From IMG/VR virus record IMGVR_UViG_2585427732_000018: a stretch of DNA of 11,410 nucleotides, one strand, 5' to 3'. Shown one piece after another: positions 1,945 to 11,410 of the stretch. Every line of letters begins with the position of its first letter. The stretch's first letter is position 1. The stretch comes from a virus (taxonomy: Duplodnaviria; Heunggongvirae; Uroviricota; Caudoviricetes). The translations under genes and the position numbers were made by a program. The notes beneath the pieces were generated by a model. The model saw only the letters and a program-made list of their open reading frames with translations, had not been told where the DNA came from and made no database searches.

Positions 1945-2092
1945 CGGGTATCACAGATATGACAAACACGAAAAAAGCGGCCCCGATATGGAGCCGCCTT
2001 TCTGAACAATTAACCCGCTGCGCCTTATGTGTATATGATCCCAAACATAAGCACGGGGATGATAGCCGCTATCAGGCTGGTGGGCAATGCAA

Positions 2093-2281
2093 TCAGTCTG
2101 GTTCAGTTCGTTGCCATACCTGCAATGAGCGCTTTTCCCTGTATTCTTTAAGGAATTGCTCAAGGGCAAAAGCACATGGCGCGAATCTTTCTGATTCATG
2201 CTCTATCTTTCTGCGCCGTCTTTTCCGTGCCGGTGATAATGTTTTGGTCAATTCTTTATCGGTCATTGTGTTGTCCTGCAT
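2093..2281 (-). CDS. Hypothetical small basic protein (62 aa)
   Basis: ATG-initiated ORF directly downstream (minus strand) of the RHH regulator gene; contains ARKRRRRK basic patch. No family recognised. Confidence 0.3.
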   Translation of the reverse strand: MQDNTMTDKELTKTLSPARKRRRRKIEHESERFAPCAFALEQFLKEYREKRSLQVWQRTEPD

Positions 2282-2323
2282 AGCAATGCGCCGTAATACC
2301 TTACACCACGGCGCTGATGGTGA

Positions 2324-2629
2324 TTACTCTGGTTCTTTGGTCTTGCGGCGCTGGAGTTCTTCACGTGCGACAGTGACGAGCTGCCCGATCTCCTCGGCGG
2401 CTTTGATTCCGAGTTTTTCCACCTGCGCCAGTGCATCGAGCGAAGAAATCAGGGGGTTTTCTCCGCTTCCTTCTGCCTGGCGGCGGGCGATTTCACCGCG
2501 CATGGCGGTTACTATGAATCCGGCGTTGCTTTCACCGTCCAGTTTTACGGATTCCATGCCTTCAATAACATCATGCGGGATCCGAGCTGTTAGTGATTGT
2601 GATTTTGCGTTTTTTGAACCTGTAGCCAT
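2324..2629 (-). CDS. Ribbon-helix-helix-like DNA-binding protein, candidate island regulator/repressor
   Basis: Start placed at the ATG of MATGSKN because a GAGAGGA SD lies 7 nt upstream (the ORF track extends to a TTG at 2644). N-terminal LTARIPHDVIEGMESV followed by two helices fits an RHH fold. Divergent from the rightward operon. Confidence 0.55.
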   Translation of the reverse strand: MATGSKNAKSQSLTARIPHDVIEGMESVKLDGESNAGFIVTAMRGEIARRQAEGSGENPLISSLDALAQVEKLGIKAAEEIGQLVTVAREELQRRKTKEPE

Positions 2630-2651
2630 CTGTAATCCTCTCAATGAAAGT

Positions 2652-2681
2652 GTAAGACAATATACACATAAAAAGTCTTAC
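2652..2681. promoter_or_regulatory. Palindromic operator candidate GTAAGAC-N16-GTCTTAC between divergent genes
   Basis: Perfect 7 bp inverted repeat (2652-2658 / 2675-2681) located between the RHH gene start and the rightward promoter. Confidence 0.4.
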
Positions 2682-2690
2682 ATAAAAGCA

Positions 2691-2719
2691 TTGACATGTA
2701 AGCCACCTATAAATAAAGT
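2691..2719 (+). promoter_or_regulatory. Putative sigma70 promoter of the rightward (Icd-primase) operon
   Basis: -35 TTGACA (2691-2696), 17 bp spacer, -10 TAAAGT (2714-2719); followed by a structured leader (CCTTG...CAAGG and CCCCG...CGGGG hairpins) before the first Icd-like gene. Confidence 0.45.
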
Positions 2720-2825
2720 TACTTACACCTTGTTAATGCAAGGTGCAGAAACGACGAAACCCCGCACTGTAGGAGCAGTAACGGGGCTTCTAACCACCAA
2801 CGATAGCAAGATTATCGAGGCAGCT

Positions 2826-3029
2826 ATGAGAAATTATACCATACACCCGCAAGGGCGGGACTCGTACAACCTGAATAAATACATCTGGCGTTTTATCGCC
2901 CTGAGCACGGCACAACCGCGCGTGATTACCATTGAGGCCACCAGCGAACAGGAAGCACGCCAGCAATCCCCGGCTGGCTGCGTGATGGTATTCGCTGCCC
3001 GTATTCGCCAGGGGTCACATCATGCGTAA
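2826..3029 (+). CDS. Icd-like (host cell division inhibitor-like) small protein, copy 1
   Basis: 67 aa; motif YIWRFIAL...EATSEQEARQQ...VFAARIRQG characteristic of Icd-like proteins of P4-like elements; GAGG SD upstream. Hidden inside the spurious 356 aa ORF 1959-3029. Confidence 0.65.
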   Translation: MRNYTIHPQGRDSYNLNKYIWRFIALSTAQPRVITIEATSEQEARQQSPAGCVMVFAARIRQGSHHA

Positions 3030-3315
3030 AAACCGCTTGCAAAAAATTATCACGGGGCTGTATGCTTCCCCCGTCGCCCACATGGCGACCGGGTTTAGCA
3101 GCCTGAATACATCTGGCGGACAGCCGCCCACATCCGATAAGCGGTTTTTTTGTGTCCGTAAACCTACCCATACCCGCATTATGGCGGGGCGTAACGGGGG
3201 AGCCTTTGTGCTCGCTGGTTTCCAGATGACCAGTCTGCTAACCCTGTTACGTCTCGCCACCATGTTTAGCAGCGTAGTAGCGAGACTCCTTAAAATTCAT
3301 CTGGGAGCCTTTCAC

Positions 3316-3486
3316 ATGGCTGTATTCGCACGCCCTTATTTTGTCTGGCGCTTTATGCAGTGCCTGACAGACAGTATTGCAATATTCACCGTTACCGCTG
3401 CCACTGAGCGCGAAGCACGTGCACAGCTGCCGCACGCACATCTTATTTTTGTCGCCCGTATTCGCCAGGGGGGGAGTCATGCATAA
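3316..3486 (+). CDS. Icd-like small protein, copy 2 (short form; the track ORF 3022-3486 may be an N-terminal over-extension)
   Basis: 56 aa from the ATG at 3316 with GGGAG SD 8 nt upstream; FVWRFMQ...ATEREARAQL...FVARIRQGG parallels copy 1. The upstream 3022-3315 part of the long ORF looks non-coding (hairpins, repeated motifs). Confidence 0.55.
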   Translation: MAVFARPYFVWRFMQCLTDSIAIFTVTAATEREARAQLPHAHLIFVARIRQGGSHA

Positions 3487-3706
3487 AATACCCTTTGATG
3501 TTCTTGTTCATTCTGAAAACGCATTAATCCGCGCAAAGGAAATGGACGCATTACTACTTAAGTTAATTGATGTGCCGGAAAGTGGCGATGAATCTGATTC
3601 AATGATGTTTTCTGCCGTGCGTACGCTATTAACGCCTGTTATTAATGAATTAAATACAGTGATGGCAATTCACGAGAATAATAAAGCGCAGCACACCGGA
3701 GAATAA
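3479..3706 (+). CDS. Hypothetical protein (75 aa)
   Basis: ATG at 3479 preceded by GGGGGGAG SD; overlaps the stop of the preceding gene by 8 nt (coupled). The track ORF 3377-3706 is an upstream over-extension. No family recognised. Confidence 0.5.
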   Translation: MHKIPFDVLVHSENALIRAKEMDALLLKLIDVPESGDESDSMMFSAVRTLLTPVINELNTVMAIHENNKAQHTGE

Positions 3707-6757: not shown

Positions 6758-6781
6758 AGCCGGAGCAATCCGGCTTTTTTA
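6758..6781 (+). terminator. Rho-independent terminator after ssb
   Basis: AGCCGGA-GCAA-TCCGGCT hairpin plus TTTTTT. Confidence 0.7.
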
Positions 6782-6835
6782 CGGGTCCTCCTGGCGGGGT
6801 GGGCCTGAACACGGGGCGGGAGGCGCGGAAAAAAG
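6782..6835 (+). other. Degenerate cos-like relic (third copy of the terminator-cos module)
   Basis: CGGGTCCTCCTGG...ACGGGGCGGGAGGCGCGG parallels 9223-9275 (CGGGTCCTTCCTGG...ACGGGGCGGCGACCTCGCGG) but the 12-nt cosN core is disrupted. Confidence 0.5.
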
Positions 6836-8779: not shown

Positions 8780-9193
8780 ATGGCAACGAATGAAAGCATC
8801 ATGACGCTACCGCTGGCGAGTAAATTTAAAGCCGAAGCGCGGGCAATGGCTGACAGAGGTTTATCAACCTACGAGGCCGTATATCAACTCAACAAACTGG
8901 AAGAGCAGGACAAGCCGCGCGCTGATGCGATTATGGCGCTTCATGAGCATAAAGACTATCAGCCGCTGTTGCGTGCAATGGCAAACGTGCCTTGTATCGA
9001 TGTTGATACGGCTAAAAACATCCTGAACATGACCATAGAGCAGGAACGCCCGAAGGTTGCACCAGAGCTTACCGCAGCCTTTGAAAACTTTATGGACATG
9101 CACAGCCCACAAACCGTATCAGCTGGCATGGCATACGATGGCAGAAACCCAGGCGATGACGGCGACATCGATCGCATACTGAAAACCATCTGA
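8780..9193 (+). CDS. Hypothetical protein (137 aa), predicted helical, in the capsid operon
   Basis: Same GGGGGAA SD as the two upstream genes; followed by a terminator. Occupies the position that lambda gpFI holds after gpE, but I see no sequence similarity to gpFI. Confidence 0.6.
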   Translation: MATNESIMTLPLASKFKAEARAMADRGLSTYEAVYQLNKLEEQDKPRADAIMALHEHKDYQPLLRAMANVPCIDVDTAKNILNMTIEQERPKVAPELTAAFENFMDMHSPQTVSAGMAYDGRNPGDDGDIDRILKTI

Positions 9194-9198
9194 GACAA

Positions 9199-9221
9199 GG
9201 CCGGAGAAATCCGGCTTTTTT
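9199..9221 (+). terminator. Rho-independent terminator after the capsid operon
   Basis: GCCGGA-GAAA-TCCGGC hairpin plus TTTTTT; near-identical to the terminator at 6758-6781. Confidence 0.7.
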
Positions 9222-9222
9222 G

Positions 9223-9290
9223 CGGGTCCTTCCTGGAATTATGGCCCGTTACGGGGCGGCGACCTCGCGGTTTTTCGCTATTTATGAGCT
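9223..9290 (+). other. cos site (forward copy): cosN cohesive-end sequence GGGCGGCGACCT at 9254-9265 with lambda-like flanks
   Basis: CCCGTTACG-GGGCGGCGACCT-CGCGGTTTTTCGCTATTTATGA matches the phage lambda cos junction as I recall it; similarity to lambda stops about 30 bp to the right of cosN. Confidence 0.8.
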
Positions 9291-9398
9291 TTTTCAGGGG
9301 GGTGGTGGTGGTTTTGTTGTTTGCTCTATCTTTATGAATGAAAAGGGAAAGATGCAAACAATACACCAACCTGAAGCAGTAATTAAGTTGGTGTATTA

Positions 9399-9941
9399 AT
9401 GAAATCGCACCTGATGAACAAAAAAAACATGGCGAAAAGCTGCCGTGTAAGTGCGACAGCGTTCGACAAGTGGGGAGTGACTCCCGTTGAACGTAAAGGC
9501 CGTGAGGCGTTTTACGATGTTGCCAGCGTGATAGACAATAGGGTTAACAATGCAATTAGCCAGCTTACAAACGACAAAGGCGATATTGATGATGATGAAC
9601 TCTTACGAGTCAGGATCAGATTACTGACAGCACAGGCGGAGGCGCAGGAACTTAAAAACGAGCGCGATCGCGGTGACGTGATTGATACTGAGTTTTGCCT
9701 GTACGCGCTTTCAAAGCTGGCGAGTCAGATTTCATCAATCATGGACAGCCTCCCGCTTACTATGCAAAGGAGCTTCCCACAGATTACCCCCGCCATGCTG
9801 GATAGGCTTAAAAGGGAAGTGGTTAAAGCCTGTAATGCCAGTGCCAGAGTTGCCGACAACCTCCCACAGATACTGGCTGATTACTTGAAAGAAACAACCG
9901 GAAACGTACCGGAAAAGTTGCTACAGAAGAAAGGCGAGTAA
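9399..9941 (+). CDS. Terminase small subunit homologue (lambda Nu1-like); candidate packaging-redirection (Rpp-type) protein
   Basis: 180 aa; C-terminal two thirds (LTAQAEAQELKNERDRGDVIDTEFCLYALSKLASQISSIMDSLPLTMQRSFP) closely parallel lambda Nu1; N-terminal wHTH region is much more diverged. Alternative starts at 9414 and 9429; no strong SD for any. Confidence 0.8.
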   Translation: MKSHLMNKKNMAKSCRVSATAFDKWGVTPVERKGREAFYDVASVIDNRVNNAISQLTNDKGDIDDDELLRVRIRLLTAQAEAQELKNERDRGDVIDTEFCLYALSKLASQISSIMDSLPLTMQRSFPQITPAMLDRLKREVVKACNASARVADNLPQILADYLKETTGNVPEKLLQKKGE

Positions 9942-9964
9942 CAGACGCGCAATTATTGAACAAA

Positions 9965-10163
9965 ACTGAGAAACGACATGAAAGCGTCATAAATCGCCAT
10001 TTTAGATGATTACCGTGTCGTTTCTTTTTATTGTGTATCTATTTAAAAACAAATAGTTATGTTCGAGAAGTACCGACATGCTTTTTCCAGAAAAATTTTC
10101 ATAAACAGATAAAAACCGCGAGGTCGCCGCCCCGTAACGGGCCATAATTCCAGGAAGGACCCG
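9965..10163 (-). other. cos site (inverted copy) with lambda-like cosB architecture; cosN core at 10121-10132 (minus strand)
   Basis: 10111-10163 is the exact reverse complement of 9223-9275 (53 bp). Read on the minus strand, the flank continues with ATCTGTTTATGAAAATTTTTCTGG, an R3-like TCGGTACTTCTCGAACATAACT, an AT-rich TTGTTTTTAAATAGATAC and an inverted repeat AGAAACGACA/TGTCGTTTCT (9969-9978 / 10016-10025), resembling lambda R3-I1-R2-R1. Confidence 0.75.
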
Positions 10164-10196
10164 ACGACACCAGACTATCAGAGCGATGGGGGCACA

Positions 10197-10478
10197 ATGA
10201 CAGAAGCCGAAATACTGGGATTAATCCGCCGTGCTGGTGGAATCAGCCAGCAGACTGACGAACAGGCCACGCAGCCGGACAGCGTGACAGCCGAAAATTA
10301 TGCGCGTGTTGTTGCTGAGGTGATGCGCCGTGATGGTATCCAGCTTAATGATGTGGATATGCGCAACATACGGATCCGCGTTCTTGAAATGCTGGCCTAC
10401 CGTCGCCGCGTGCAGACGTACAGGGAAAAAGCAAAAATTACGTACCACTGGAAGAAGCCGGAGCGGTTACGGCGGTAA
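10197..10478 (+). CDS. Hypothetical protein (93 aa)
   Basis: GGGGG SD upstream; lies between the inverted cos and the right-end repeat array. No family recognised. Confidence 0.5.
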   Translation: MTEAEILGLIRRAGGISQQTDEQATQPDSVTAENYARVVAEVMRRDGIQLNDVDMRNIRIRVLEMLAYRRRVQTYREKAKITYHWKKPERLRR

Positions 10479-10647
10479 CTGGTTGATATTTTCGAAATTC
10501 GCCAGCGGCGAACATCGGGGAAACCAGCCTAACCCGTTGATATTTTCGGGAACCTCAAATTGAGGAGGTCGGAAACATAACCCGTCATATTCTGGATGCT
10601 GATAATTACCACGCAGCCCATTAAGGCCTAACCCGTTGATTCTTCCC
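10477..10647 (+). repeat. Four phased direct repeats (TAACCCGTTGATATTTTCG-like) at about 50 bp spacing
   Basis: Copies at about 10477, 10529, 10577 and 10627; also palindromes TTCGCC-AGC-GGCGAA (10495-10509) and GCGCAA-AA-TTGCGC (10700-10713). Confidence 0.6.
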
Positions 10648-11071
10648 AATTTCCACAGACTGCGGAAATTGGCGCGGTAACTTACTGAGATTAAAGCAAA
10701 GCGCAAAATTGCGCTGGCTGGTGGGCATGATGCCGATATGGTGATCCCCATAACGGAAATATCCACCAGCACGGCAACGGCAGAATAGCCACAACACAGA
10801 AAAACCACGAATATGGGGTTTTTGTTATGGCATGGGCATGATGACCGCCCCTGCTCTGAATGGTGGAAATCACCACGCAGATCATCCACCAGCTTCGTTT
10901 TTATAAATTAAACATCCGGGAAAATCCGACCCTGAATTGTGCATTTTTTCAGCAAATCATTTTAGTTATACGTTTGGTTATACGGTTTAAAAGTTGAATC
11001 ATATACATTATTTTAAATCATGAAGTTACACGCTCAATTAAACTACTCTCGTGCCGACCAAAAATCCCAAG

Positions 11072-11100
11072 AAAACCAACCTATTGCGGTTGGTTTTTTT
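11072..11100. terminator. Bidirectional intrinsic terminator, probably for the convergent flanking gene
   Basis: AAAACCAACC-TATTGC-GGTTGGTTTT with a T-tract on the + strand and an A-tract upstream. Confidence 0.55.
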
Positions 11101-11161
11101 ATATCTGCATTTAATTCGATAAACAGACCGCGACACATCACGGCCTGTTTATTTTCTGTTA

Positions 11162-11410
11162 TCAGAACGTCCAGACCACACCCGCCTGAGTTGTGCTGCT
11201 TTCTTCACGGGAGAAACGGCTGTCGATACCAAGCGTTAGCCCCGTCAATGTTTGCTCAAAGCCAGCGCCTGCATCAGTGGTCACGTTGTTGCGGCTGTTA
11301 ATTGCCGAACTCCACATCGCCGTATCGTAATTAACGCCTTTTACGCTACCAAGACGCCCACGCACGGTGTCCAGTTCTGCATCAAATACCAGCGGTTGTG
11401 CTGCCGCCAT
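11162..11410 (-). CDS. 3' end of a flanking gene (partial, continues beyond the window); possibly an outer-membrane beta-barrel protein
   Basis: Open to the window edge; C-terminus ...TTQAGVVWTF ends with an aromatic-x-Phe pattern common in outer-membrane beta-barrels. Weak inference only. Confidence 0.35.
   Translation of the reverse strand: MAAAQPLVFDAELDTVRGRLGSVKGVNYDTAMWSSAINSRNNVTTDAGAGFEQTLTGLTLGIDSRFSREESSTTQAGVVWTF

Follow-up and report, generated by a model that had tools for sequence, protein, structure and literature searches.

A tandem array of units related to phage rha, roi and ant genes, with consensus IHF sites, at the right end of an Escherichia coli phage-inducible chromosomal island

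IMG/VR record IMGVR_UViG_2585427732_000018 is an 11,410-nucleotide stretch of DNA, referred to here as the window, and it is a phage-inducible chromosomal island (PICI) of E. coli of the EcCICFT073 type. Its last gene is an open reading frame (ORF) for a 93-amino-acid protein, ORF93, and directly behind it lies a tandem array of short direct repeats. Here, we investigated this array and the gene next to it, both in the window and in related islands. The repeat units carry a consensus site for host IHF and mostly a short palindrome, and they match one fixed segment of lambdoid phage rha, roi and ant genes. We tentatively propose that the array may be a decoy or sensor for IHF and for Rha/Roi proteins of helper phages.

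Anatomy of the repeat array

The array consists of five units on the + strand, starting at 10476, 10530, 10579 (degenerate), 10629 and 10678 and ending at ~10718. An earlier note on this DNA, made from the sequence alone, had recognized the direct repeats and short perfect palindromes, but counted four copies up to 10700 and two palindromes; there are five units and four palindromes, that of unit 4 with one mismatch. A window scan with the 19-mer TAACCCGTTGATATTTTCG, allowing up to 3 mismatches, gave matches solely at 10476 and 10530, with 0 expected. A shorter core of the box additionally matched at 10629, and the degenerate copy at 10579 and the diverged copy at 10678 were found by reading the sequence. 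The successive spacings of 54, 49, 50 and 49 bp agree with the repeat distance of about 50 bp given in the note but not with its term “phased”: they correspond to an inconsistent 4.7–5.1 helical turns, and the spacing is therefore the unit length and not helical phasing.

Each unit is laid out as a box, TAAC-NNN-YTGAT-ATTYYCG, followed in four of the five units by a short palindrome ~23 nt after the start of the box and ~10 bp past the IHF consensus site. Unit 1 (class A; 10476–10529) has the box TAACTGGTTGATATTTTCG, which read on the minus strand is an exact IHF consensus, and the palindrome TTCGCCagcGGCGAA at 10498–10512 (TTCGCC-agc-GGCGAA). Unit 2 (class B; 10530–10578) has the box TAACCCGTTGATATTTTCG, likewise an exact IHF consensus, and the palindrome CCTCAaatTGAGG at 10553–10565 (CCTCA-aat-TGAGG). 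Unit 3 (10579–10628), identified by sequence reading, is a degenerate or truncated copy, TAACCCGTCATATTCTGG, joined to a spacer module; it is without a palindrome, its box has two mismatches to the IHF consensus, and its spacer module recurs elsewhere, ahead of the class D units of other islands. Unit 4 (class D; 10629–10677) again has an exact IHF consensus in its box TAACCCGTTGATTCTTCCC, and its palindrome, CCAATTTCCACAG-a-CTGCGGAAATTGG at 10646–10672, has 13-nt arms with one mismatch. Unit 5 (class E; 10678–10718) combines a diverged box, TAACTTACTGAGATTAAAG, with the palindrome AGCGCAaaatTGCGCT at 10700–10715 (AGCGCA-aaat-TGCGCT).

Further repeats were observed in and behind the array. The segment at 10591–10621 is a 31-nt direct repeat of 10855–10885 (77% identity) and recurs ahead of class D units elsewhere, and a long-range inverted repeat, GCTGGTGGGCATGAT at 10718–10732 and ATCATCCACCAGC at 10881–10893, encloses ~160 nt. 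At 10786–10826, a hairpin with the arms AAAAACCAC and GGGGTTTTT and a T-run comes after a CA-rich stretch, CCACAACACAG. This element looks like a terminator or the 3′ end of a small RNA; both arms of its stem differ in the O157 island (CAAC/GTTG), and the hairpin has no Rfam match. An Rfam search of 9100–11410 in E-value mode gave chance-level matches only. We also considered a minus-strand ORF of 140 amino acids (10467–10889) as a repeat protein and rejected it, as its frame is broken in the related island L002, where the peptide pieces lie in different frames.

IHF consensus and palindromes across units

The IHF consensus WATCARNNNNTTR lies on the minus strand, and the box as read on the + strand is YAANNNNYTGATW. 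The 11.4-kb window contains three exact matches to WATCARNNNNTTR, against an expectation of 0.81, and these are boxes 1, 2 and 4. Our comparison sets comprised 55 related right ends, 41 distinct right ends for copy number and spacing, and 60 distinct units. The exact consensus is found in 43 of the 60 distinct units, and 9 more have one mismatch. When units were compared with their phage alleles, mismatches amounted to 31/40 in the four N positions of the consensus and 14/90 in the specified positions, and box positions 5–7 varied most. This excess at the N positions is the pattern expected under selection for IHF binding.

The palindromes have a constant offset of 23–24 nt from the box start across units. 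We assessed them by a direct hairpin count against shuffled sequences and obtained a mean arm of 5.05 bp compared with 2.76 bp in the shuffles (sd 0.11), formed by 26 different arm sequences. RNAalifold returned no consensus structure for 30 aligned units, because the hairpins lie one column out of register. As a strand test, we compared stem mismatches of the G:T and A:C types, which numbered 3 and 9, respectively, in counts that are not independent.

Homology to phage rha, roi and ant genes

A BLAST search of the arrays against phage genomes yielded matches in genes annotated as Roi, Ant, Rha or DNA-binding protein. These matches, antisense and at the same spot every time, came from classes A, B, C, D, E and I. 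A winged-helix domain of the Pfam family Phage_pRha is present in all phage genes checked, and the matched segment covers codons ~41–56, directly past the recognition helix of the N-terminal Phage_pRha region. Pairwise identity between unit and phage gene is 31–39 of 44 nt, and the similarity ends at the unit border. Unit 1 (class A) is identical at 35/44 positions to a pRha-domain “DNA-binding protein” gene of Stx2_95, unit 2 (class B) at 34/44 to HK620 roi (sister units reach 39/44), and unit 4 (class D) at 34/44 to a pRha-domain gene of Stx1_14744. Class E matches rha of Lys8385Vzw (31/44 for unit 5) and of phi80, class C matches phiP27 ant, class I VT2-Sakai roi and class F/G P22 rha. The region 10560–11040 and an extra palindromic module of L048 were also compared with phages, and nothing matched beyond the units.

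The phage genes share the layout of the units as well. The palindrome of unit 5 contains GCGCAAAATTGCGCTGG, identical to a palindrome inside phi80 rha. P22 rha has a perfect IHF consensus adjoining ACGCAAAAATGCGC, and HK022 roi has the same box-plus-palindrome layout, yet with another palindrome. The Stx1_14744 pRha-domain gene contains a perfect 12+12 palindrome within its coding sequence (L169, ~520–545), and an exact identity between a unit and HK620 roi spans 27 nt across the hairpin. On the island side, the minus-strand pieces are without the upstream helix-turn-helix coding part, and in L002 their frames differ and stop codons intervene between them. Since the island pieces form no single reading frame, coding does not explain why the IHF bases and palindromes are kept. 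As a separate observation, perfect intragenic palindromes beside an IHF consensus also occur in the rha/roi/ant genes of phage records L085, L086, L171 and L208.

Genes of this kind are known to be under IHF control. Henthorn and Friedman reportedly studied rha of phi80 and P22 in 1995. The HK022 Roi protein is said, from work by Clerget and Boccard in 1996, to bind within its own gene by an IHF site, with IHF stabilizing the binding. The title of the HK022 Roi/IHF paper states that Roi “inhibits phage lytic growth in IHF mutants.” In IHF-defective hosts, Rha prevents the phage from growing, and rha itself is regulated by IHF (PMC4936722); the annotation of the phi80 record concurs on the link between rha and IHF. 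The phage segment is most likely an intragenic element by which IHF (in HK022, also Roi) restrains a gene that is toxic to phage growth. Judged from the sequences, the conserved intragenic IHF site with its allele-specific palindrome is an obvious candidate for the Roi/IHF control element, and the alignments point to a control element at the DNA or RNA level inside rha/roi/ant genes that has seemingly never been mapped across the family.

Distribution and turnover among related islands

The number of units ranges from 0 to 7 among the 41 distinct right ends, with 48 bp as the commonest spacing, and every unit has the same orientation, co-directional with the island genes. An ORF93 homolog lies directly upstream in 36 of the 38 IMG/VR stretches with two adjacent boxes and is lost in the other two. 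There (L188:5731 and L203:809), the array is kept, ORF93 is deleted, and the ACGGCGG|TAAC junction is retained, so the array can exist without ORF93. The array is also dispensable, because some islands hold ORF93 without any units. Arrays are found both in HK97-type capsid-forming PICIs (cf-PICIs) and in lambda-type Rpp PICIs, together with unrelated integrases and primases. In the island of E. coli Nissle 1917, a class C unit takes the place of window unit 4 (class D) between identical flanks; units are exchanged as cassettes.

Other elements were also seen at these right ends. In L019, an insertion sequence (IS) element sits within unit 1 (from L019:10310 onward). In many islands (L003:12395–12520, L036, L015 and L058), a module with four GTGAC motifs, 10–11 bp apart, follows or replaces the array; behind it come a promoter-like stretch and then, as a clean intrinsic terminator, GACGTGGCCAACGTC plus a T-run. 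This module may be a small RNA gene or another cluster of binding sites.

Integrase arm-type sites

The actual right boundary of the island is marked by the attR core CTCTCGTGCCGACCAAA (11046–11062, + strand), a 17-bp duplicate of the 3′ end of the tRNA-Pro gene proL, which we defined by comparing it with the tRNA-Pro 3′ terminus at the Nissle attL. Near-identical islands sit between proL and yejO in E. coli Nissle 1917, ATCC 25922 and others. The earlier note had suggested that the repeats are arm-type integrase sites of attR, and the integrase (Int) does have an arm-DNA-binding domain (PF13356), with the repeats on the att-proximal side of the last gene. Comparison of islands by integrase identity refuted this suggestion, by the very criterion that the note had set, and leaves it hardly any probability. 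The Nissle island encodes a 100%-identical Int, and its left, int-proximal att flank (L001:1675–1890) is free of TAAC boxes. The boxes of the window are 330–570 bp away from the attR core. Only two degenerate boxes remain in islands with 95%-identical integrases (L062, L065 and L066), while 2–7 boxes accompany integrases of 21–36% identity (L048, L070, L075, L076 and L083), and the copy number is variable.

Furthermore, a separate motif fits the arm-site role on both arms. A motif scan located TTAGTTATACG/TTGGTTATACG repeats at 10962–10984 (+ strand), 62–84 bp from the core, and four more copies of the TTAGTTATACG type, two direct and two inverted, lie just upstream of int in the Nissle island (L001:1806–1860). 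These TTAGTTATACG repeats, on both att flanks of islands with 100%-identical Int, are credible as arm sites and are likely to be the true ones. Five CACCGGA(T/A) repeats were also seen in the attL flank of the Nissle island (L001:1680–1790), between the end of tRNA-Pro and a terminator-like hairpin; these might be sites for the excisionase (AlpA) or further sites of the att arm.

ORF93

ORF93 (10197–10478, + strand) starts with ATG, and its TAA stop codon forms the first three bases of repeat unit 1. The 93-amino-acid ORF proposed in the note was borne out as a gene: comparison with nine homologs gave a pN/pS of 0.21–0.49, which indicates purifying selection. ORF93 matches phrog_1561 over its full length (residues 1–93 of 93, E = 6e-56). 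This was the sole profile match, and searches of Pfam, NCBIfam, PADLOC and PDB sequences gave none. An exhaustive HMMER search of 1.8 billion proteins indicates a narrow, enterobacterial family with 40 representatives, mostly fragments; in the RefSeq annotation of related genomes, the gene product is a hypothetical protein. An AlphaFold 2 model has three helices at a pLDDT of 66, and a Foldseek search with it found no match at E < 1. The homologs carry a nearly invariant basic tail, YxWKKPERLRR.

Homologs of ORF93 are 86–100% identical and are the last gene both in HK97-type cf-PICIs (after terL, in islands beside phoQ and clpS) and in lambda-type Rpp PICIs, the window island included. It is therefore a conserved backbone gene, encoding a small protein predicted to be helical, and not the accessory or interference cargo that the note had suspected; the lack of a PADLOC match agrees with this. 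Right ends of the ORF93 type are present in ~31% of complete E. coli genomes (1682/5426).

Island context

The window has the features of an EcCICFT073-type PICI: int, alpA and a primase gene, capsid genes like those for lambda gpE and gpD, two cos sites and a Nu1-like gene after cos1, with tail and lysis genes absent from the window. Position 1 is the ATG of the tyrosine integrase. From there, the genes encode an AlpA-like protein, two proteins with an Icd-like domain, a DUF4222 protein, a D5/P4-alpha-type primase, a single-stranded DNA-binding protein (SSB), the gpE- and gpD-like capsid proteins, a Nu1-like protein of 180 amino acids and, last, ORF93. The published layout of EcCICFT073 comprises the capsid gene c1499, the decoration gene c1500, cos1/cos2 and Rpp (PMC6092414, PMC6739421). 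Its two cos sites are known, and phi80 is its experimentally proven helper (PMC6092414).

The Nu1-like gene is flanked by two cos copies in opposite orientation, at 9223–9294 (+ strand) and 10092–10163 (− strand). The second copy, cos2, is a 72-nt arm 92% complementary to 9223–9294, and ORF93 lies outside it, as the note had stated. A lambda-like inverted R-type repeat pair (9960–9978 and 10016–10034) adjoins cos2 only; in the published EcCICFT073 accounts, we saw no discussion of the inverted cos orientation and this R-like pair. The Nu1-like protein (9399–9941) occupies the rpp slot of EcCICFT073-type islands and could be either a true TerS or an Rpp that has diverged. No PDB chain, the deposited Rpp structures included, matched it at E ≤ 0.01, and so the name Rpp would be given for its position.

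Two further observations concern other genes. An Icd-like (host cell division inhibitor) domain ends both adjacent ORFs at 1959–3029 and 3022–3486, whose 3′ ends have a 42-nt repeat in common (2997–3038 and 3454–3495); this region carries a different annotation in Nissle 1917, including a pseudogene. Terminator-like hairpins at 6759–6789 and 9200–9230 (GCCGGAG-AATCCGGC, then a T-run) are 94% identical and close the SSB block and the capsid block, respectively.

Possible function of the array

We give a rough probability of 0.45 to the proposal, drawn from sequence comparison, that the array is a DNA-level decoy or sensor for host IHF and helper Rha/Roi proteins. From the anatomy, the phage homology, the IHF consensus and the independence from integrase and primase type, we infer binding and a biological effect. 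The units would act on double-stranded DNA as sites for IHF together with helper Rha/Roi-family proteins, and a multi-allele array would couple the island to whichever helper is present. The helper autoregulator might thereby be titrated or redirected; alternatively, an IHF/Rha nucleoprotein block could be built at the island end. The earlier note had also considered sites for another island protein. The repeats do have the look of protein-binding sites, but judging from the units, the likely ligands are host IHF and Rha/Roi-family proteins of helper phages rather than a protein of the island.

Several points weigh against this proposal. Class E boxes deviate from the IHF consensus, the Salmonella phage gene matched by class J is a KilA-N and not a pRha gene, and ORF93 is kept with zero units in L014, L034 and L036. 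The operator role of the palindromes is drawn from the reported HK022 study and from palindromy that persists despite sequence change. Titration of IHF by itself is implausible because IHF is abundant in the cell, and the benefit to the island is doubtful because a titrated autorepressor keeps the same free level at steady state. Finally, a single orientation, co-directional with the operon, would also be expected for a strand-specific (RNA) role.

Such a role is what an antisense RNA array would have: the units, in the 3′ tail of the ORF93 operon, would pair through their hairpins with the rha/roi/ant mRNA of a matching helper and silence it, so that the array would hold antisense segments directed at several helper alleles. 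All units in all islands are antisense to the phage gene and co-directional with island genes, and read-through is likely because unit 1 starts with the stop codon of ORF93, with no strong terminator predicted upstream of ~10800. Hairpins are the usual nucleation points of antisense pairing, and the 27-nt exact identity to HK620 roi runs across one. However, complementarity is lost at box positions 4–7 while the positions specified by IHF are kept, a pattern that pairing does not need. Island palindromes are often better or longer than those of the phage (6/6 against 4/6 in class A, 5/5 against 4/5 in class I, 11-bp arms in class B′), which points to selection on the palindrome itself. The units also have no Rfam match, and we consider antisense silencing unlikely. 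Just as unlikely, in our estimate, is an IHF-dependent transcription block or insulator against leftward host transcription (e.g., from yejO or phoQ), or a mark of the operon end, for which the palindrome sequence would be irrelevant; the units would then be hairpin-plus-IHF roadblocks derived from the attenuator within rha genes. Read leftward, a unit is a hairpin, a short T-rich stretch and an IHF site, and unit 5 scored as terminator-like on the minus strand. At two integration sites, the neighboring host genes are directed into the island, rha is under negative IHF control in phages, and the hairpins vary freely in sequence but keep a fixed position. Yet the T-runs after the hairpins are 2–4 nt only, hence non-canonical for terminators, a good bidirectional terminator already exists at 11069–11100, and the array is missing from some islands. 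A block also leaves unexplained why the units come from many phage alleles instead of from duplication in place.

The array might also be functionless debris, or a hotspot, of recombination between satellites and helper rha/roi genes. The clear nucleotide homology to phage genes, the highly variable number and order of units, the swaps of whole units between otherwise identical islands and the IS element within a unit of L019 would all fit. Scars of recombination would vary in the length of flanking rha, though, and the homology is always the same ~44 nt with the same borders. Moreover, IHF-specified bases and palindromes are kept without coding constraint (different frames, with stops between), and the location and orientation are fixed in 36 of 38 cases; debris is, in our judgment, improbable. 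It is very improbable that the units are origin iterons or form a second cis-replication region serving the primase-helicase. Direct repeats would suit such a role, as would the D5/P4-alpha-like primase and SSB of the island and the distant cis-replication region (crr) known from P4; nevertheless, units co-occur with primases of 39–98% identity and with DUF927-type proteins, and a window scan found no box copy near the primase gene. The mapped origin of PICIs adjoins pri-rep. A broader possibility, which we regard as doubtful, is an evolving, cassette-like library for helper recognition, in which ~48-bp operator/IHF modules taken from rha/roi/ant of the phages the island has met, as DNA decoys or antisense RNAs, sense or disarm a helper regulator that is toxic to phage growth.

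Other candidates were set aside. An AgvB-like anti-sRNA was rejected, as AgvB lies in lambdoid prophages and the array has no Rfam match. Resemblances to lambda nut (boxA plus boxB), to the phiX174/pC194 nick sites (CTTGATA), to integron attC and to P1 parS were dropped in favor of the direct rha/roi homology.

Comparison with known systems

The activator through which Gram-negative PICIs sense their helpers is described as “to be identified” (PMC6092414). An array of helper-regulator operators and IHF sites would be a concrete cis-element candidate for this sensing, and the conserved intragenic IHF site with its palindrome is a likely location for the unexplained IHF control of rha/roi. If the library possibility were true, Gram-negative PICIs would have a previously unknown, allele-specific means of helper recognition or interference. 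The repeats need no longer be annotated as att arm sites or origins, and the array identifies a dispensable, modular region for synthetic PICI engineering.

Among known systems, lambda-like attP arm sites resemble the array as short direct repeats near att alongside an integrase with an arm-binding domain, but the array motif is on one arm, lies too distant from the core and varies independently of integrase type. The RIP/RIB elements of E. coli (BIME-1, REP palindromes flanking an IHF site) are also intergenic and repeated and combine the IHF consensus with palindromes. Unlike them, the array has no REP consensus, has much shorter palindromes, is confined to one satellite locus and has its homologs within coding sequence of phages. 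Replication iterons of PICIs and P4 (ori/crr) are likewise tandem direct repeats in a primase-encoding satellite, whereas the array is not next to pri-rep, has no AT-rich center and is independent of primase type. Decoy or sponge arrays such as datA for DnaA, CsrB for CsrA and the prophage anti-sRNAs (e.g., AgvB) follow the same proposed logic of gathered regulator targets; for the present array, we infer this function.

The closest counterpart is the intragenic IHF/Roi element of the lambdoid rha-roi-ant genes, which is like the array in sequence (31–39/44) and in its layout of IHF consensus and adjacent palindrome. The palindromes are allele-specific in phage and array alike, with GCGCAAAATTGCGCTGG shared by phi80 rha and unit 5. 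However, the phage has one copy within a coding sequence, whereas the array has 0–7 tandem copies outside a Rha gene, so that a satellite without rha sets the alleles of several phages side by side. A search of the available PICI literature found no description of the array or of its rha/roi homology, and we know of no satellite in which operators from several helper-phage alleles are brought together. IHF sites and operators are familiar as building blocks; what is new is that a satellite gathers them at its end from more than one helper allele.

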